This document shows, piece after piece, positions 13,678 to 49,834 of a DNA stretch of 52,659 bases; position 1 is the first letter of the stretch; each line of letters opens with the position of its first letter. The stretch spans positions 45,501 through 98,159 of the forward strand of contig MHCL01000026.1 of the NCBI GenBank assembly GCA_001816915.1, in the 5' to 3' direction. The notes under the pieces were generated by a model. The model did no database searches. It saw nothing but the letters and a program-made list of their open reading frames with translations, and was not told the DNA's origin. Position numbers and translations under genes: made by a program. This DNA is from Candidatus Chisholmbacteria bacterium RIFCSPLOWO2_01_FULL_49_14 (lineage in GTDB: Bacteria > Patescibacteriota > Microgenomatia > UBA1400 > Chisholmbacteraceae).

Positions 13678-14808
13678 TTATTCCGCTATCGTCAGTCCGG
13701 GATCAATAGCCACTCTTGTCCATGGAGTAGGGGAGAATCGGTAGAAAGCCGAAGCCGCAACGGATGCGGCGTTATCTGTACACAGCTCAACGGGTGGAAT
13801 AAAGAGGGCAATTTCGAATTTCAAATTTCGCCTGCCCGCTTGCCCGACCTTTGGCGTGGCCCCTTTGGAGGGAATTTCAAATTTTAACCGTTGGCGTAGC
13901 CTGCGGTTAGCAGCCACACCTCCGGCAACCAAGACCGATTTCGGTCGATACTCATTGATCGCCCGAGCAAGCTTTGTAATAAGAACCTCACAGATTGCTT
14001 CCTGCGCCTCTTGAGCAATAGCCCGAACCAATTGACCGGAAGGCTTTCGACCGCTCAATTGTCGCATGACAGCCGATTTTAACCCACTGAATGAGTAATC
14101 ATATTCCTCACTATCCATCATCGGCCTCGGTAAAGAAATTTTGAATTTTGAATTTTGAATTTTGAATTTCTCCGCCTCAGCGGCAATGGCCGGTCCGCCG
14201 GGATAAGCCAAACCCAGCATCCGCGCGATTTTATCAAACGCTTCACCCGCGGCGTCATCTCGGGTGCTTCCCAGCCGTTCGATATCCTCGTGAGAATGCA
14301 TCAGCACCAGATCGGTGTGCCCTCCCGAAACAACCAGCCCGAGCGCCGGAAACTCAGGTATCTTTGTATTTGTATTTTGAGATTTAAGATTTCGAAATTG
14401 TTTCGAATTTCGTGCTTCGGATTTCGATTTTACGCCGACCCAATTGGCGTACAGGTGTGCAACCAGGTGATTGACGGCAAGCAGGGGTTTTCCCCAAGCC
14501 AAGGCAAGTACCCTGGCGGTTTCAACCCCGACCAGCAGACTTCCGGACAAACCCGGGCCGGCGGTCACGGCGATGGCGTCGATATCTTGGAGTCGTATTT
14601 TGTGCAGCGCTTCGGACAGAACAGGAAGGAGCAGCTCAATTTGCTTGCGAGCCGCTACCTCGGGGACAATGCCGCCGGTATTTTGGTGGAATTCCTGGGA
14701 ACTGGCAACGGCTTGAGAAAGAACGATAACCTTCCGATCAATTGCCGTTCCTTCTACCACAGCCGCAGCTGTTTCATCACACGACGTTTCAATTCCTAGT
14801 ATTTTCAT
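13678..14808 (-). CDS. tsaD: tRNA N6-adenosine threonylcarbamoyltransferase TsaD (Kae1/Qri7 family), carrying three repeat-derived insertions
   Basis: Matches are MKILGIETSCDETAAAVV, GPGLSGSLLVGV, LGLVVSGGHTDL, DDAAGEAFDKIARMLGL, VAGGVAANRRLR and CTDNAA. Confidence 0.9.
   Translation of the reverse strand: MKILGIETSCDETAAAVVEGTAIDRKVIVLSQAVASSQEFHQNTGGIVPEVAARKQIELLLPVLSEALHKIRLQDIDAIAVTAGPGLSGSLLVGVETARVLALAWGKPLLAVNHLVAHLYANWVGVKSKSEARNSKQFRNLKSQNTNTKIPEFPALGLVVSGGHTDLVLMHSHEDIERLGSTRDDAAGEAFDKIARMLGLAYPGGPAIAAEAEKFKIQNSKFKISLPRPMMDSEEYDYSFSGLKSAVMRQLSGRKPSGQLVRAIAQEAQEAICEVLITKLARAINEYRPKSVLVAGGVAANRRLRQRLKFEIPSKGATPKVGQAGRRNLKFEIALFIPPVELCTDNAASVAASAFYRFSPTPWTRVAIDPGLTIAE
13809..13887. 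repeat. Composite repeat inside tsaD: 13-bp direct repeats GAATTTCAAATTT (13816-13828, 13872-13884) flanking a 43-nt GC-rich core
   Basis: The direct repeats are perfect and 56 nt (8 x 7) apart. The core holds CCTTTGG twice, 14 nt apart. Translated as LKFEIPSKGATPKVGQAGRRNLKFEI. Confidence 0.85.
14135..14170. repeat. Tandem heptamer GAATTTT (3 perfect + 2 variant units) inside tsaD
   Basis: Reads gaaatttt gaatttt gaatttt gaatttt gaatttc. The coding strand AAAATTC is translated as KFKIQNSKFKIS. Confidence 0.9.
14362..14432. repeat. Degenerate heptad-phased AT-rich block (about 10 units) inside tsaD
   Basis: Reads tttgtat|ttgtatt|ttgagat|ttaagat|ttcgaaa|ttgtttc|gaatttc|gtgcttc|ggatttc|gatttta. 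Translated as KSKSEARNSKQFRNLKSQNTNTK ahead of the conserved LGLVVSGGHT. Confidence 0.75.
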
Positions 14809-41223: not shown

Positions 41224-42645
41224 TCAAAGGCGCGGGAAAAGCGGCTTGGCCGCTGAAATCTTGGGACCGGAAAACAGTTTGAGAACCGCAGAGGCTGTAT
41301 CTGGCAGGAACGGCTGCAACTCAAAGCCAATCTGACGGATGTGGGCAACAAGCTCGGTCAGTACCGATTTAAGCGTTTTTCCAGAAAGCTCCCAAGGCCG
41401 TTGCTGTTCAATCAAAGTATCAACATCAGAGATTTTTTTCCAGATTTCGGCCAACGCTAAATCCAGGCGGTACGACTCCATATGTTTCACAACCTCGCTT
41501 CGAAAACCGGGAGGGAGATCCGGGGCAAATGTAAACCCACTATTTTCACAAAGCTTAGCAATTCTCGATATGATGTTTCCTAACCCATTCGCCAAATCCG
41601 CAGCATAAAGCTGCTTAAATCGTCGAAAGGTAAAATCTCCGTCTCCATGAGTGGGAATCTCCCGCAAGAGGTAGTATCGAGTTGCATCGGCACCATATTC
41701 TTCTACGACCTTGAACGGATCAACGACGTTTCCCAAACTTTTACTCATCTTATGTCCGCCTGACGTAAGATATCCATGAACGAGAATTGATCGTGGTAAA
41801 GGAAGCTCGGCTGAAAGCAGCATCCCGATCCAATAAACAGCGTGAAAGCGTAAAATGCCTTTCCCAATAACATGCAAATCAGCAGGCCACCACTTTTTCC
41901 AAAGCCGCTCATCAAAGCCCCACCCCACAGCGGTTTGATAGATGTTGAGCGCGTCAAACCAAGTGTATACGACCTGGTTCGGGTCTCCTGGAACAGGAAT
42001 ACCCCATTGTTTAGCGCGTTCCCTGCTACGTGAGATGCTGAAGTCTTGAAGACCGTCCTTCATAAACGCAAGAGCCTCTCTCTTCCTCGTAGTTGGGATA
42101 ATCGAAAGTTTTTCTGAAGCAACAAGCCTCTCAATCTGGTTCTGATACCGTGAAAGCCGGAAAAAATAGTTCTCCTCCTCTACCCATTCCGGTTCAATGA
42201 GGTGTTCTGGACATTTACCATCAACGAGATCCTTTTTTGTGTAAAAATCCTCGCATCCAACGCAGTAAAAACCACCGTAGTTTTTTTTATAAATATCACC
42301 TCTTTTTTCACAAATTTTCCACAACTTCCACGTTCCAGGCCAGTGAAGTTTACGATCAGAACCCCGCCTCCAAACATCAATTCGAACGTTCAGTAGCTTC
42401 ACGAGATCCCGAAACGCCTTCGTGTTTTTATCTGCCAACTGCTTCGGGCTAAATCCCTTCTCTTCAGCGGCTTGAACGATCTTCAGGCCATTTTCATCTG
42501 ATCCAGAGATCAGAAGGGCCTCGTAACCTAATAGTTTCTGATATCTTGCAATGGCGTCACATTGAACAAACTCAAGAGCATGACCTCCATGCGGAAGTCC
42601 GTTGACATAAGGAATAGCGGCAGTGATGTAATACTTCTTGTCCAT
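41224..42645 (-). CDS. metG: Methionine--tRNA ligase (short form without C-terminal tRNA-binding domain)
   Basis: ITAAIPYVNGLPHGGHA (HIGH), KMSKSLGN, and a zinc knuckle CVGCEDFY ... CPEH. Confidence 0.92.
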   Translation of the reverse strand: MDKKYYITAAIPYVNGLPHGGHALEFVQCDAIARYQKLLGYEALLISGSDENGLKIVQAAEEKGFSPKQLADKNTKAFRDLVKLLNVRIDVWRRGSDRKLHWPGTWKLWKICEKRGDIYKKNYGGFYCVGCEDFYTKKDLVDGKCPEHLIEPEWVEEENYFFRLSRYQNQIERLVASEKLSIIPTTRKREALAFMKDGLQDFSISRSRERAKQWGIPVPGDPNQVVYTWFDALNIYQTAVGWGFDERLWKKWWPADLHVIGKGILRFHAVYWIGMLLSAELPLPRSILVHGYLTSGGHKMSKSLGNVVDPFKVVEEYGADATRYYLLREIPTHGDGDFTFRRFKQLYAADLANGLGNIISRIAKLCENSGFTFAPDLPPGFRSEVVKHMESYRLDLALAEIWKKISDVDTLIEQQRPWELSGKTLKSVLTELVAHIRQIGFELQPFLPDTASAVLKLFSGPKISAAKPLFPRL

Positions 42646-42660
42646 AGAGACATTTCACCG

Positions 42661-43671
42661 TCACATACCAATATACCCGTATCTTCTATTCCTTTCATCA
42701 ATATTATTTAGCACCTTCAGCGTATCTTTCACTCTCTTTGCATGTTTTAAGTAAGGACGAACCATTCTTGTAAAATTAAAAAGATCAGCTTTCCGATCAA
42801 CGCTGAGAATCCTATAGTCATTGTTGTGAGCATAACCATCTTTTCCTCGGTAACCCTTCTTTACACCGATAAACAGCCTACTTCTAACTCCTAACTTTTC
42901 TAAAGCACTTCGTATCTGCTCCAGTAAAGTTACATTATAGTTCCCAACCGAGAAAGTTGCTGCCTTTCCATTGCTGGTCACAAAGAAACTTCCTTCTGCG
43001 TCGATGAAACCCACCAGAAGGGGAAGAAACAATGGCTTTTTCTCTAAACCCCAAGTAGGAAACCTATCAAAGTTTTCAAGCAAAAAAGAGAAAGACAAGT
43101 CAACAGCACACTCTATCTGTAATTTTCCTGACTTGGTGGGTTTGCTTATCCATACTCTTCCATATTGCGAAAATAACGACTTGATCAATTCGATCTGGCT
43201 TTTCTTTGTTGACCCACAATCAACTAAGATTGTTTCACTATTTTTATACATCTTCCTCACCCGTAAGTCTCCTATTCTAAAACCAATCAGATAAGCTTTT
43301 TCTTGTTGATTTCCAGAAAATGGAGCCCTGAAGGTTGTGATATGCGCAAGAGATAGTGTCTTTTTCGCAAGTCCATACTGTTTAATTTTTCTATCAACAG
43401 AAGAATAAGCACATTCATAAATCTTTGCAATCTTTCTGCTCGACAAACCTTTGTGTAGATACAATTCATACAAATCCTTTTTGGAAATATGTACTCTAGG
43501 AGGCCCAGGAGTGCGCGGAGGAATGCCACACTCCACCATCCTAATAGAGATAGTTCTAGCAGCATACCCCAATAGGCTACCAATTTCTTTAATTGTAAGA
43601 CAATCTTCCCAATACAATTTCTTCAAAGTTTGTTGAGAAATAGAGAATCTTTTAGCTTTCATAGGAACCAT
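42661..43671 (-). CDS. LAGLIDADG homing endonuclease with two N-terminal HTH modules
   Basis: LAGLIDADG motifs are YLIGFRIGDL and LLVGFIDAEGSF. The duplicated N-terminal HTH-like units are LTIKEIGSLLGYAARTISIRMVECGI and LSSRKIAKIYECAYSSVDRKIKQYGL. The DNA is AT-rich and the stop lies 15 nt from the metG start. Confidence 0.75.
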   Translation of the reverse strand: MVPMKAKRFSISQQTLKKLYWEDCLTIKEIGSLLGYAARTISIRMVECGIPPRTPGPPRVHISKKDLYELYLHKGLSSRKIAKIYECAYSSVDRKIKQYGLAKKTLSLAHITTFRAPFSGNQQEKAYLIGFRIGDLRVRKMYKNSETILVDCGSTKKSQIELIKSLFSQYGRVWISKPTKSGKLQIECAVDLSFSFLLENFDRFPTWGLEKKPLFLPLLVGFIDAEGSFFVTSNGKAATFSVGNYNVTLLEQIRSALEKLGVRSRLFIGVKKGYRGKDGYAHNNDYRILSVDRKADLFNFTRMVRPYLKHAKRVKDTLKVLNNIDERNRRYGYIGM

Positions 43672-45829: not shown

Positions 45830-48800
45830 ATGAAAGACGATCTGGTCCTGAATAAGAAACAAAAAGAAGCGGTGGAATTCCGCCAGGGACCATTGTTGAT
45901 CGTCGCCGGCGCCGGAACCGGAAAGACGACAGTCATCACGGAACGCATTAAATTCCTCATTCGCTCCGAAGCCGCGTCACCAGCACAGATATTGGCATTG
46001 ACCTTCACAGAGAAAGCAGCGCGTGAGATGGAAGAAAGGGTTGATATCGCCATGCCCTATGGATACACGCAAATGTGGATCTCAACCTTTCACGCATTCG
46101 GCACGCAAATTCTGCGCCGGGAAGCGTTGCATATTGGCCTCAATCCAAATTACAAGCTCATGACGGAGGCGGAGGCGATTCAAGTGATCCGTCGCAACCT
46201 TTTCCAATTCAAACTGAACTATTTCAGGCCGCTGGGGAACCCGACTAAATTTGTCGGCGGGCTACTCCAGCACTTCTCAAGGTTACAGGATGAGGATGTG
46301 GGTCCTTCCGAATATTTGAAGTTTGCGATGAGCTTGGGGAAGAAAGCAAACAAATCACGGGAGGAGAAGCTGGAAGTCGAAAAAACCTTAGAGCTTGCGC
46401 GAGCCTATCAACAATTCGGGGAGCTGAAAATCAAAGAGGGGTACATGGATTACGGCGACCTGATCGGTAACACCCTTTTGCTGTTTCGCAAACGCAAGAA
46501 CGTCCTGAAAACCTATCAAGAACAATTTAAATACATGCTGGTCGATGAATTCCAGGACACCAATTTTGCCCAATATGAGATGTTAAAACTTCTTGTTCCA
46601 CCCGGTAAACGGGCAAACTTGACCGTTGTCGGCGATGATTCACAGTGTTTGCCCCCCACCGCAATCATCGCAACCCCAGACGGAGGAAAAGCAATACAGG
46701 AAATAAACAGAAGAGATGAGGTAATCACCGCCATTGGGAAAGGCCACACTTCTGTCGCAAGGGTATCGCGAGTCTTTCGACGAAAAAGGAGAGCCCGGCT
46801 GCTTACGTTCAAAACCGAAGATGGAAAAAAAATCACGCTTACCGATAATCATAAGATGTTTTGTTTTCTCCCTGCGTACTACCCACTCACGGGCTGGCAC
46901 TTCGTCTACCTCATGCACCAGCAGGGAATCGGGTGGAGAATTGGCGTAACAAACAGCATCCCTCAGAGACTTCGACTCGAGACTCACGCCGACACAATTT
47001 TAGCGATAGGGTCATACAAGACAGATCAGGAAGCAAGATTCTTTGAGGCGTACTATGCTGCAAAATATGGTTTACCGACAGTCCCATTTACTGCTCGACC
47101 GAGACAAGCAATACGAGGAAAATGGTTAGCAAGATTATTTAGCGAAATTGATACAGAAGAAAACGCGCGCGTATTGGCGAAAGACTTGAATATCGAACTT
47201 GATTCCCCCCAATACTCGGTAGATGGCATTACCCGCGGAATCAGTCGTCGGGTAAAAGTCCATCTGTCGATGTGCCATAGGAACTACCGGAGTAAGTCGC
47301 ACAAAAAAGGCTTCGTCGGTAATCCGGGCATTTCACATCAGGTACACATTGAGACATCAAACACAAGGGTATTACGTATTCTGAAGAAGACTGGCTTCAA
47401 TCTTACGAAAGCGAAGAAAGGAAAACGATTCCGTTTTCAAACACCGGACCTGGAAAAAGCTTGGGAAGTTGCAACGGAACTCACGCGATTAACGGGTGGC
47501 ATCATGGACAAAAAATTCGTTGTCGGACGCTATAATTATCAGCATCTTCCGACCAGAATTGTACCGGCAAGCCACATTCTTCCTGGAATGTATCTTCCCA
47601 CACTGAAGGGAAAACAGATTGAATATAAAATGGTAGTTTCTCGGAAAGAGGAAGAAAGAACGATAGAAACGTACGATTTAGAAGTTAAAAAGACGTACAA
47701 CTTCATTGCAGACGGAATAGTCGTCCACAACTCAATCTATAAATTCAGAGGCGCCGCGGTATCAAACATCCTGCACTTCAGGGATGACTACAGGCAAGCA
47801 AAAACAGTGGTACTCACCGAGAACTACCGATCGACGCAAAGCATCCTCGATCCCGCATACCGCTTAATTAACCACAACAATCCGGACACGTTGGAGGTAA
47901 AGTTGGGTATGAAAAAAAACTTGGTAAGCAGACGCGATCCCCATGGAGGAAAACCGGTCAAATTCATCCACACCGATCGAGTGGAAAATGAGGCTGATAC
48001 GGTCACTAAAAACATCATGGAGCATATAAAAGGAGAGGAATATGAATATAAGGATATTGCAATCCTGGTACGCGCCAATAATCATGCCCAATCGTTCATG
48101 CGGGCTTTGTCAAGGCATGGAATACCATATCAGTTTTTAGGACCGGGCAGGCTTTTCAAACAACCGGAGATCATTGACCTCATTTCATACCTCAAAGTCC
48201 TCTACGATTTTGAAGACTCAATTGCCCTCTATCGGCTGTTATCCATCGAGCAGTTTGAAATTCCTGTCAAAGAACTCATCAAGGTGAACAATCTTGCCAG
48301 AAGAAAGAATCTCACACTCTACGAAGCATGCGAAAATCTGAAGGATATCTCCATTTCACAAACAGCACGCAAGAAAGTCAGGCAAATCTTGGAAATCATC
48401 GAAAAGCAACTGAAGCGTACGAGAAACGAAACGGCAGGCCAGCTCCTGTTCGATTTTCTCCAAGAATCAGGGTTGTTAACGAAGCTTTTAAACCCGAAAA
48501 ACGTGGAAGCAGAAAAAAAGGCTGCCAATATCTCAAAATTATTCGACAGGCTTAAGAGCTTTGAAGCGGGTCATGAAGACGCCACCGTTTCGGCAGTTGT
48601 CGATTGGATTGAGCTGGCAAGTGAATTGGGAGAGTCTCCGCTTGCCGCGGACACGGACTGGACAAAGGTGAACGCCGTCAATCTCTTGACGGTGCATTCG
48701 GCAAAGGGGCTGGAATTTCCCATCGTCTACCTCACAAACCTGGTCTCCCAGCGCTTTCCGACCATTGAACGCAGAGAACAGATACCGATTCCCGAGGCAC

Positions 48801-49834
48801 TGATTAAAGAAGAACTTCCTTCAGGGGATTATCACCTTCAGGAAGAACGCCGTCTCTTCTATGTCGGGATGACCAGAGCCAGAGACAGCCTCGTGCTGAG
48901 TGCGGCAGATTACTACGGTGACGGCAAGCGTGGGAAAATAATTTCCCCATTCGTCTTTGAGGCACTCGGAGACAGAGTGCTCTCGGCAGAACGAGAAGAG
49001 GATGGCAACCAACTCACATTTTTGGATTACTCATCATCCGAGCCTGCAGCCGTAAACCATGAACCTTCAAGGCTGCACGTCGATTATCTCTCCTACTCTC
49101 AGATTGAGACGTTTAGATTCTGCCCGTTGCACTATAAACTGAAATACCTGTTGAAACTTCCTTCTCCCCCATCGGGCGCTTTGAGTTTCGGCACATCATT
49201 GCACGCCGCGCTCAAAGAGATCTATTCTGCCGTCATACGGAGCGAGAAAGTGAGTTCCAAATACGCAATTGAGTCCTTGAAAAAGAATTGGATATCGGAA
49301 GGCTACAGCGGGAAGAAACACGAGCATCGGATGTTTGAGAAAGGAGAAAAGTATCTGACGAATGTGCTCAAAGAAGAAGCAAAATCAAAGAAAAAACCGG
49401 TAGCACTGGAACAGCAATTCATCGTTCCGCTGACGACTGACAGGGGGAAACATCCGTTCTTAAAGATCGGAGGAAAAATTGACCGGGTTGACGAAATTGA
49501 CGGAGGGGGAATTGAGATCATAGATTACAAAACAGGGGAAAATCCTCCTACGCAGCGTCAGGTTGATCATGATTTGCAGTTAACTTTTTACGCGCTTGCA
49601 GCAGTAAATATCAGAGAATTCCCCTTTGGAAGAAAAGCGGATGATATTAGCCTCACCCTCCATTATTTATATGGGAACAGGAGAATGACGACAACAAGAA
49701 GTTTGCAAGAACTCGAAAAAGCGAAGGAAGATATATTTTCTTGGCGGGAGAAGATTGAAGCTTCAGACTTTTCCTGCTCCAAACAGCCACTCTGCGAGAA
49801 ATGCGAATACGCGTTTCTCTGCCGAGCAGAATAA
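45830..49834 (+). CDS. UvrD/PcrA-type SF1 helicase fused to a C-terminal Cas4/AddB-like PD-(D/E)XK nuclease with a 4-Cys cluster; interrupted by an intein
   Basis: Helicase motifs: I AGAGTGKT, Ia LALTFTEKAAREM, II DEFQDTN, III VVGDDSQ/SIYKFRGA (split), V/VI TVHSAKGLEFP, LFYVGMTRAR. Nuclease: FCPLHYKLKY ... IDRVDE ... IEIIDYKTG ... QLTFYA ... CSKQPLCEKCEYAFLC. Confidence 0.9.
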   Translation: MKDDLVLNKKQKEAVEFRQGPLLIVAGAGTGKTTVITERIKFLIRSEAASPAQILALTFTEKAAREMEERVDIAMPYGYTQMWISTFHAFGTQILRREALHIGLNPNYKLMTEAEAIQVIRRNLFQFKLNYFRPLGNPTKFVGGLLQHFSRLQDEDVGPSEYLKFAMSLGKKANKSREEKLEVEKTLELARAYQQFGELKIKEGYMDYGDLIGNTLLLFRKRKNVLKTYQEQFKYMLVDEFQDTNFAQYEMLKLLVPPGKRANLTVVGDDSQCLPPTAIIATPDGGKAIQEINRRDEVITAIGKGHTSVARVSRVFRRKRRARLLTFKTEDGKKITLTDNHKMFCFLPAYYPLTGWHFVYLMHQQGIGWRIGVTNSIPQRLRLETHADTILAIGSYKTDQEARFFEAYYAAKYGLPTVPFTARPRQAIRGKWLARLFSEIDTEENARVLAKDLNIELDSPQYSVDGITRGISRRVKVHLSMCHRNYRSKSHKKGFVGNPGISHQVHIETSNTRVLRILKKTGFNLTKAKKGKRFRFQTPDLEKAWEVATELTRLTGGIMDKKFVVGRYNYQHLPTRIVPASHILPGMYLPTLKGKQIEYKMVVSRKEEERTIETYDLEVKKTYNFIADGIVVHNSIYKFRGAAVSNILHFRDDYRQAKTVVLTENYRSTQSILDPAYRLINHNNPDTLEVKLGMKKNLVSRRDPHGGKPVKFIHTDRVENEADTVTKNIMEHIKGEEYEYKDIAILVRANNHAQSFMRALSRHGIPYQFLGPGRLFKQPEIIDLISYLKVLYDFEDSIALYRLLSIEQFEIPVKELIKVNNLARRKNLTLYEACENLKDISISQTARKKVRQILEIIEKQLKRTRNETAGQLLFDFLQESGLLTKLLNPKNVEAEKKAANISKLFDRLKSFEAGHEDATVSAVVDWIELASELGESPLAADTDWTKVNAVNLLTVHSAKGLEFPIVYLTNLVSQRFPTIERREQIPIPEALIKEELPSGDYHLQEERRLFYVGMTRARDSLVLSAADYYGDGKRGKIISPFVFEALGDRVLSAEREEDGNQLTFLDYSSSEPAAVNHEPSRLHVDYLSYSQIETFRFCPLHYKLKYLLKLPSPPSGALSFGTSLHAALKEIYSAVIRSEKVSSKYAIESLKKNWISEGYSGKKHEHRMFEKGEKYLTNVLKEEAKSKKKPVALEQQFIVPLTTDRGKHPFLKIGGKIDRVDEIDGGGIEIIDYKTGENPPTQRQVDHDLQLTFYALAAVNIREFPFGRKADDISLTLHYLYGNRRMTTTRSLQELEKAKEDIFSWREKIEASDFSCSKQPLCEKCEYAFLCRAE
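46646..47731 (+). mobile_element. Intein (362 codons) inserted in helicase motif III
   Basis: The N-extein ends VVGDDSQ. The intein starts CLPPTAIIATPDG (block A). Block B is ITLTDNHKMF (T-x-x-H). The C-terminus is TYDLEVKKTYNFIADGIVVHN, followed by +1 Ser (SIYKFRGA). Confidence 0.88.

Follow-up and report, generated by a model that had tools for sequence, protein, structure and literature searches.

According to reviews and surveys, the endonucleases carried by inteins are of the LAGLIDADG or, more rarely, the HNH type, whereas GIY-YIG enzymes are found in group I introns or as free-standing genes and not in inteins (PMC1564403, PMC2677866). In the "fractured genes" described by Dassa et al. 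2009 (PMC2677866), a free-standing gene for a GIY-YIG or Vsr-like endonuclease lies between the halves of a split intein, an arrangement proposed as a route by which inteins gain new endonuclease domains; the same paper noted that no intein was known to contain a GIY-YIG domain. To this, a survey in a 2025 preprint adds just Vsr-like and endonuclease VII-like cases that are antisense or out-of-frame (bioRxiv 10.1101/2025.01.02.630785). Inteins of UvrD are themselves already known, with 16 listed (PMC4760082). Here we analyze a window (the whole stretch of DNA studied, 52,659 nucleotides of contig MHCL01000026.1 from Candidatus Chisholmbacteria bacterium RIFCSPLOWO2_01_FULL_49_14) in which the gene of a UvrD/PcrA-type helicase is interrupted in motif III by an intein that, with a high degree of confidence, carries a nested domain of the GIY-YIG fold. 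In the literature, which was incompletely covered, no description of an in-frame GIY-YIG intein or of the endonuclease of a UvrD/PcrA intein was found, and an earlier account is possible. A first-pass annotation made from the sequence alone had called a GIY-YIG passenger unusual for inteins, which agrees with PMC1564403 and PMC2677866.

The intein and its parts, in window coordinates and all on the plus strand, are as follows.

46646..47731, +, class-1 intein of 362 amino acids (aa), with Cys1, T66-x-x-H69 (block B), D344 (block F) and H361-N362 (block G)
46646..46882, +, N-terminal HINT splicing segment, intein residues 1-79 (TIGR01445 and Pfam Hint, both over residues 1-72)
46883..47116, +, GIY-YIG-like catalytic core, intein residues 80-157 (AlphaFold2 (AF2), Foldseek, hhalign, conservation)
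47117..47227, +, acidic helical hairpin, intein residues 158-194 (AF2; net charge -4)
47228..47533, +, basic alpha/beta subdomain, intein residues 195-296 (AF2; net charge +18)
47534..47731, +, C-terminal HINT splicing segment, intein residues 297-362, ending VVHN (Intein_splicing, TIGR01443, mini-intein alignment)

The intein in helicase motif III

The intein reads free of stops through 362 codons in frame, from CLPPTAIIATPDG at its start to FIADGIVVHN at its end, followed by Ser, and its block B is T66-D-N-H69. Its ends, for which a profile search had been proposed in the first-pass annotation, matched splicing models over their cut-offs: Pfam Intein_splicing with an E value of 7.2e-13 (49.1 bits, cut-off 35.8; the C-terminal stretch covers residues 271-362), TIGR01445 intein_Nterm with 1.3e-8 (residues 1-72) and TIGR01443 intein_Cterm with 1.1e-7 (residues 341-362). 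Moreover, the C-terminal 60-90 residues align with the solved mini-inteins PI-MtuI (2imz) and Pho RadA (4e2u) in a phmmer search of the PDB with the intein, in which mini-intein ends were the only parts matched. For conservation we used a set of 74 inteins, representatives clustered at 50% identity or less; C1, T66, H69, D344 and N362 are invariant in this set and H361 is found in 73 of the 74. These intact, invariant splicing residues point to an intein that is competent to splice.

Deletion of the intein joins VVGDDSQ to SIYKFRGA. At the DNA level, the intein-less junction of nucleotides 46631-46645 with nucleotides 47732-47752 reads ...GGCGATGATTCACAG|TCAATCTATAAATTCAGAGGC.... The spliced helicase, of a predicted 972 aa once the 362-aa insert is deleted in silico, was aligned with PcrA of B. 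stearothermophilus (2pjr/1pjr) with an E value of 4e-73 over its first 442 residues, and the alignment runs without a gap through the junction, vGDdsQSIYkfRGA standing against vGDADQSIYRWRGA of PcrA. These sequence comparisons confirm 46646-47731 as a class-1 intein in motif III of a UvrD/PcrA helicase; two claims of the first-pass annotation thus held, namely that the insert has the class-1 residues (Cys1, T66-x-x-H69, His361-Asn362 and Ser+1) and that its removal restores motif III.

Fold and conserved residues of the nested domain

Between the splicing segments, intein residues ~72-296 had no match, at E values up to 1, among the families of Pfam, NCBIfam and PHROGs. LAGLIDADG and HNH models were among those without a match to the central region, as the first-pass reading of a region lacking both had held; likewise, no LAGLIDADG motif is present in the 74 aligned relatives, and HNH structures were absent from the Foldseek matches of the whole domain to the PDB and of the core to the PDB and BFVD. 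It could still be argued that the nested domain is a cryptic or degenerate LAGLIDADG or HNH enzyme, or that the true endonuclease is read from a different frame or from the other strand: a few LAGLIDADG structures do occur among the weak whole-domain Foldseek matches (E 0.4-0.8, probability 0.28 or less), and out-of-frame and antisense endonucleases have been described in some phage inteins (bioRxiv 10.1101/2025.01.02.630785). However, the other five frames inside the intein hold open reading frames (ORFs) of at most 115 aa, the longest being 106-115 aa, which overlap just the 5' end, so that no convincing endonuclease of the phage-intein kind is present, while the in-frame domain is confidently folded and conserved. 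We regard this explanation as very nearly untenable.

The only Pfam family that recurred in the central region was GIY-YIG (PF01541), seen in 6 of 38 members scanned singly (best E 0.045). Two further families, which are related to GIY-YIG, were not supported, T5orf172 (PF10544) having matched 1 of the 38 members at E 0.2 and MUG113 (PF13455) 1 of the 38 at E 0.036, with the window sequence unmatched by either.

A stronger relation was obtained by comparing profiles with hhalign, using as references an alignment of 13 I-TevI-like catalytic domains from phage genes and another of 12 genes for "GIY-YIG nuclease family protein" of the YazA/YhbQ (UPF0213) type from plasmid records. The core aligned with the UPF0213/YazA family over 64 columns, from strand 1 to helix 2, with 93.3% probability, a P value of 2.7e-7 and a score of 39.3; the reversed template scored 10.3 and 100 column shuffles 10.9 +/- 2.5 (maximum 20.6), placing the real score ~11 standard deviations over the shuffled controls. 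As a yardstick, the I-TevI family scores 38.1 (91.6%) against UPF0213, thus the intein domain is as near to UPF0213 as is another bona fide GIY-YIG family. In addition, when the whole PDB was searched by sequence with a hidden Markov model (HMM) of the core, 1zg2 ranked first (E 0.11), with YVYLM paired with YVYIL, RIG-T with YTGYT, and EA..yE with EEAMRWE.

Two AF2 models were built, one of the whole central domain (residues 80-296, from 38 relatives) and one of the core (residues 82-157, from 74 relatives). The former has a mean predicted local distance difference test score (pLDDT) of 91.4 and begins with a strand-strand-helix-strand-helix unit (~85-141), after which come a helical hairpin (158-181) and, as third part, an alpha/beta subdomain. 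The core model (pLDDT 90.5) has strands at 4-11, 15-21 and 36-43 and helices at 24-30 and 46-60 in its own numbering, and this predicted topology of strand-strand-helix-strand-helix is the order of the GIY-YIG fold. In intein numbering, strand 1 holds V87-Y88-L-M90 and strand 2 G96-W-R98-I-G100-V-T102; helix 1 contains R108, with E112 directly after; strand 3 follows, then helix 2 with E129, A130 and E134, and lastly Y141-G-L-P144...F148.

When the core model was searched with Foldseek against the PDB, the best match was 1zg2 (BH0048, a GIY-YIG protein of UPF0213), with E 0.09, probability 0.80 and a TM-score (TMq) of 0.42. Against BFVD, a set of predicted viral structures, the outcome was far clearer. 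The first three matches (TMq 0.76-0.83) appear to carry the same domain as the core, ranks 1 and 2 comprising one protein named DNA 3'-5' helicase and one unnamed. Nearly all named matches at ranks 4-50 were GIY-YIG nucleases, group I intron or homing endonucleases, or NUMOD proteins, with TMq 0.57-0.70, probability about 1.0 and E 0.007-0.08. The structure prediction and Foldseek search suggested by the first-pass annotation thus led, in BFVD, mostly to annotated GIY-YIG nucleases. The third BFVD match, A0A8S5TZY8 (TMq 0.76), is a phage protein of 782 aa whose annotation is that of an adenine-specific DNA methyltransferase; it may be a further host protein for the core domain or a mis-annotation. 

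Taken together, profiles and models support a nested domain that is GIY-YIG-like at the level of fold and superfamily. The first-pass annotation had proposed a GIY-YIG/T5orf172-type nuclease from the motif WHFVYLMHQQGIGWRIGVTNSIPQRLRLE...DQEARFFEAYYAAKYGLP, which corresponds to intein residues 84-144 and whose claimed spacings are correct within one residue; the GIY-YIG-like part of that proposal is borne out by the fold, the BFVD matches and the hhalign comparison with UPF0213, while T5orf172 was not supported. Of the Pfam families named for its profile search, PF01541 was thus recurrent but below threshold, and LAGLIDADG and HNH gave nothing.

Conservation was studied in the set of 74 inteins, which share the pattern [YF]-V-Y-L-M-x5-G-[YWF]-R-[IVL]-G-x-T ... 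R-x3-E-x2-A-D ... E-A-x3-E-x6-Y-G-[IL]-P-x3-F. Y88, M90, R98, G100, R108, E112 and P144 are invariant (74/74), E134 and F148 are present in 73 of the 74, and near-invariance is seen at L89, G96, A115, D116, A130, Y141, R202, H231 and R261. In many members the RIG strand is separated from the R-x3-E helix by an insert of ~11 residues; the window copy is of the short form. Such conservation across 74 relatives indicates that the motif pattern is not a matter of chance. A second set of 72 inteins (71 genome loci plus the window copy) gave comparable values for R108 (70/72), E112 (72/72) and E134 (71/72), three residues that the genome search pattern does not fix; this DNA pattern biases its own positions, thus the conservation of those was judged on the unbiased set of 74 representatives.

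Several of these residues have putative counterparts in the GIY-YIG active site. Y88 of strand 1 aligns by both hhalign and the HMM with the GIY tyrosine (74/74), and on strand 2 G100 matches the YIG glycine and T102 the threonine that follows it. R108 would be the counterpart of the catalytic arginine, since it lies at G100+8 in a predicted helix (105-111) and is found in 74/74; owing to insertions in the two families, hhalign sets the residue of the window copy opposite a UPF0213 loop, thus this correspondence rests on spacing and helix position. E134 of helix 2 would stand for the metal-binding glutamate, being paired by hhalign with the invariant Glu of UPF0213. From the invariance of a tyrosine, two arginines and two glutamates we infer selection on an active site.

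A number of observations weigh against the GIY-YIG assignment or limit it. With the whole 217-residue central model Foldseek returned nothing from the PDB at E 0.001 or better, and its weaker matches (eIF1, the MotA C-terminal domain and a few LAGLIDADG enzymes) are not interpretable. For the core, the match to 1zg2 is weak if taken alone, the best PDB E value being 0.09, and the best E value to an annotated GIY-YIG protein in BFVD (from rank 4 onward) is 0.0067; Foldseek scores moreover contain an amino-acid term and thus are not wholly independent of sequence. The short-form family consensus reached PF01541 with E 0.009 and 16.7 bits, under the gathering cut-off of 22.6, and the window sequence had no correctly placed match to that model. 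No significant similarity to the I-TevI family was detected by hhalign (0.7%), the sole aligned segment pairing E134 with I-TevI E75. As to single residues, the position of the YIG tyrosine is occupied by the invariant Arg98 in the motif [YWF]-R98-[IVL]-G100, and Arg+4, an invariant His in the UPF0213 and I-TevI alignments, is here the invariant Glu112. A basic residue at the YIG tyrosine position is found in some bona fide GIY-YIG members, such as Hpy188I. No counterpart of the conserved Asn after the glutamate helix was identified in the 74 inteins, in which this region reads Y141-G-[IL]-P144...F148, and the UPF0213 alignment is likewise without an invariant Asn in the aligned span. The residue correspondence derives from alignments combined with predicted secondary structure, and DNA cleavage, its target site, the role of each residue and DNA binding by the basic module are all inferences.

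These observations could suggest that the GIY-YIG resemblance arose by convergence, or that it is an artefact of a predicted model and of a small strand-strand-helix-strand-helix unit of common occurrence, and that the domain has in truth an unrelated fold; the want of a PDB match at E 0.001 or better, the TM-score of 0.42 to 1zg2, the sub-threshold Pfam matches and the missing hhalign relation to I-TevI would all agree with this. We hold it to be very unlikely: three partly independent lines (HMM against the PDB, Foldseek against the PDB and BFVD, and hhalign with UPF0213) lead to the same superfamily, the hhalign score stands far above its shuffles and equals that of I-TevI against UPF0213, the conserved residues occupy the same secondary-structure elements as the catalytic residues of GIY-YIG enzymes, and no other fold class recurs among the BFVD matches.

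Beyond the GIY-YIG-like core, the hairpin is formed by helices at positions 79-88 and 91-102 of the central model, predicted with pLDDT above 90. The basic subdomain contains 24 Lys and Arg against 6 Asp and Glu, as well as the conserved R202, H231 and R261; no confident match was found for its fold, with no PDB match at E 0.001 or better. It is probably a DNA-binding module, a candidate whose place in the order core, linker, basic module parallels the two-part plan of GIY-YIG homing endonucleases (PMC2677866).

Distribution of the family and the case for homing

An exhaustive phmmer search of 1.84 billion representatives clustered at 50% identity yielded 347 relatives at E 0.001 or better, including 19 at E 1e-30 or better. 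Among the best 150 relatives, 73 align over the full 362 residues, and in all 73 the insertion site is the same, GDxxQ / C...HN / [SCT]IYx[FW]RGA (slashes mark the junctions); matches at other coordinates also lie in UvrD-like helicases. In a word-indexed collection of 5.8 billion proteins, which is without the window protein and nearly all full-length relatives, the central domain had no match and family alignments matched gene fragments only. Among these fragments is P0155, from a helicase-intein gene that has been called as separate ORFs on a contig of 18 kb.

When genomes of GTDB, one for each species, were searched at the DNA level with a degenerate pattern encoding YVYLM-x5-G-[YWF]-R-[IVL]-G, at least 120 loci were obtained, from as many species. 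All 120 loci listed carry this intein family, and the site is motif III at every listed locus whose N-terminal junction lies inside the fetched DNA. Hosts among the loci listed include many Patescibacteria (Saccharibacteria, Paceibacterota, Moraniibacteriota and others), Chloroflexota, Deinococcota, Cyanobacteria, Myxococcota, Planctomycetes, Rokubacteria, Elusimicrobia, Omnitrophota, Armatimonadota and Muribaculaceae, together with Clostridia, among which are the cultured Clostridium bovifaecis BXX, C. thermopalmarium DSM 5974 and Desulfosporosinus lacus DSM 15449. The closest to the window copy among the matches listed is that of a Saccharibacteria metagenome-assembled genome (L124), with 58% identity in the intein and 47% in the extein. 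The intein occupies this helicase site in five viral contigs as well. At ~10 loci the matches are shortened away from the ends of the fetched DNA; these are decayed copies or assembly errors.

Among the protein relatives, P0020 (1217 aa) has an intein at residues 260-548, in the same site, in which model positions 80-160, exactly the GIY-YIG core, are missing while the HINT segments and the basic subdomain are kept; judged by its sequence, it looks like a decaying endonuclease. P0101, a helicase of 2433 aa, has three inteins of this family, at residues 590-986, 1046-1370 and 1874-2108, in sites that include motif II (VLVDE/C...SHN/CQD) and motif III (...SHN/SIYSWRGA), thus the family is not confined to motif III. 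In P0044, P0087 and P0109 the motif III intein is accompanied by a second one, of LAGLIDADG type, upstream in the N-terminal domain of the helicase, so that two endonuclease families are predicted within one host gene. Lastly, P0032, P0079, P0114 and P0124 (362-380 aa) cover the whole intein-like span from a Met start, without Cys1 and the terminal His-Asn, and keep the YVYLM, RIG and R..E motifs. Either they are artefacts of gene calling or they may be derivatives that stand free, in the manner of yeast HO.

In our proposal, the codons of helicase motif III (GDxxQ/SIYxFRGA) have received a mobile class-1 intein. Its HINT halves (1-79 and 297-362) would excise the intein and ligate the helicase by means of Cys1, His361-Asn362 and Ser+1. 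The nested domain would form a two-part homing endonuclease, with a divergent GIY-YIG core (80-157), the hairpin, and the basic subdomain (195-296) binding DNA. Once freed, the intein would recognise and cut the sequence that encodes an unbroken motif III in an allele lacking the intein, into which recombinational repair would then copy the intein. Cuts by GIY-YIG enzymes typically have 3' overhangs of 2 nt. In the putative catalytic set, Tyr88 would be the GIY tyrosine, Arg98 would replace the YIG tyrosine and Glu112 the histidine, with Arg108 of helix 1 and Glu134, the metal ligand, as the other members. Nuclease competence is suggested by the fold, the superfamily relation and the invariance of this Tyr/Arg/Arg/Glu/Glu set. 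Altogether we consider it likely that this is a mobile intein with a GIY-YIG-type homing endonuclease, endonuclease function included.

The main alternative accepts the GIY-YIG fold and denies it a homing nuclease role, whether lost or never held: the domain would be a splicing regulator that senses DNA or nucleotides and thereby adjusts activation of the helicase, or a structural passenger, and the intein would be inherited mainly vertically. Two canonical catalytic residues are indeed replaced, the element is very widespread and apparently old, and inteins in ATPase motifs have been argued to act as regulators (PMC4760082). Moreover, intein and extein identities are strongly correlated (r = 0.88, 2556 pairs), which fits long vertical retention as well as it fits active homing and weighs against our proposal. 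On the other hand, a tyrosine, two arginines and two glutamates are invariant at GIY-YIG active-site positions across sequences ~30% identical, and the decayed copies and the core-deleted copy are what a homing cycle predicts. Some cross-phylum pairs also have inteins closer than their exteins: between Cyanobacteria (L048, L061, L071, L093 and L132) and Deinococcota (L037, L043, L079 and L108) the inteins are 0.51-0.55 identical and the exteins, over 400 flanking residues, 0.39-0.43, which hints at some inter-phylum transfer of the intein independent of the host gene. The presence of the same family at several sites of one helicase speaks likewise for mobility, as does its recurrence at one site in the listed species of many phyla and in viral contigs. 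On balance, a domain without a homing role seems to us improbable, and a homing endonuclease is the reading that we retain.

Genomic setting and relation to known systems

The gene that carries the intein is divided as follows.

45830..49834, +, host gene, precursor of a UvrD/PcrA-type superfamily-1 helicase, 1334 aa (ORF listing, Pfam)
45830..46645, +, N-extein, ending ...NLTVVGDDSQ, first half of motif III (ORF, PcrA alignment)
47732..49834, +, C-extein, starting SIYKFRGA, second half of motif III (ORF, Pfam, PcrA alignment)

Pfam matches of the host ORF were UvrD-helicase (4.9e-66), UvrD_C (3e-56) and PDDEXK_1 (6.5e-38). The C-extein spans the helicase 2A/2B domains and then a PD-(D/E)XK domain, located at 48900-49831 at the C-terminal end of the helicase ORF, with a Cys-rich tail CSKQPLCEKCEYAFLC. 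By these domain matches the host is a helicase-nuclease fusion rather than a plain UvrD/PcrA. The intein differs little from its exteins in composition, with a GC content of 0.457 against 0.463-0.487 and a GC content at third codon positions (GC3) of 0.46 against 0.54, a contrast too slight for the insertion to be dated from it.

The remaining window genes that were scanned are ordinary bacterial chromosomal ones, among them those for GroEL, aminoacyl-tRNA synthetases, TsaD, GAPDH and RmuC. A free-standing ORF of 336 aa at 42661-43671 (minus strand), adjoining the methionyl-tRNA synthetase gene (41224-42645), matched LAGLIDADG_3 (3.7e-7) and, weakly, helix-turn-helix models, and may be a second, independent homing-endonuclease-like gene of the window. 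The TsaD homologue (13678-14808, minus strand, 376 aa) matched its Pfam model in two stretches, which may reflect a small insertion.

If the proposal is true, inteins have recruited GIY-YIG enzymes too, which would place a further in-frame superfamily beside LAGLIDADG and HNH and would provide the fused final form that the "fractured gene" model of endonuclease gain anticipates. The family is broad (347 clusters at 50% identity, at least 120 species, many phyla); it would explain the unannotated block of ~220 residues common in many UvrD/PcrA annotations. It is also predicted to offer a nuclease scaffold that is monomeric, uses an unusual catalytic set and is directed at helicase motif III, a very conserved target. 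We lean, by a modest degree, to the view that this is a large undescribed intein family with an in-frame GIY-YIG enzyme of variant active site (Tyr/Arg/Arg/Glu/Glu), the first such enzyme fused in an intein.

Among known GIY-YIG proteins, UPF0213/YazA/YhbQ (BH0048, 1zg2) is the best match to the core by sequence profile, profile-profile comparison and structure. Both have the same order of strands and helices, the first Tyr, the Gly and Thr of the second motif, a helix-1 Arg (by spacing, G+8) and a helix-2 Glu. However, UPF0213 proteins are free-standing, ~95 aa long, with the YIG Tyr and a His at Arg+4, whereas the intein core has the invariant Arg98 and Glu112 at these positions, is without the GKGAKYT loop, has a YG[IL]P...F tail and, within an intein, is joined to other subdomains. 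Endonucleases of the I-TevI type (T4 I-TevI, Seg proteins) resemble the intein domain in superfamily fold, in the combination of a catalytic core with a separate DNA-binding region and in presumed selfish homing. They are intron-encoded or form free-standing genes, while the intein domain is an in-frame fusion that would be freed by protein splicing; also unlike them, no NUMOD, zinc-finger or helix-turn-helix region was detected in the intein domain, and its catalytic residues differ.

The fractured genes share with the window intein a GIY-YIG endonuclease tied to an intein in genes of DNA metabolism, helicases included, but in them a split intein is paired with an endonuclease that has an ORF of its own, whereas the window holds a single continuous polypeptide with both HINT halves. 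Finally, canonical bifunctional inteins (those with LAGLIDADG domains, such as PI-SceI and PI-MtuI, or with HNH domains) are, like the window intein, class-1 HINT domains interrupted by an endonuclease domain, inserted in a conserved ATPase motif of a DNA-metabolism protein and with splicing residues of the same kind; the difference lies in the nested domain, which in the window intein comes from a different nuclease superfamily. Read from these comparisons, the window intein is a known architecture, that of the bifunctional intein, with an unreported class of passenger, a divergent and so far unmodelled family of a known superfamily.

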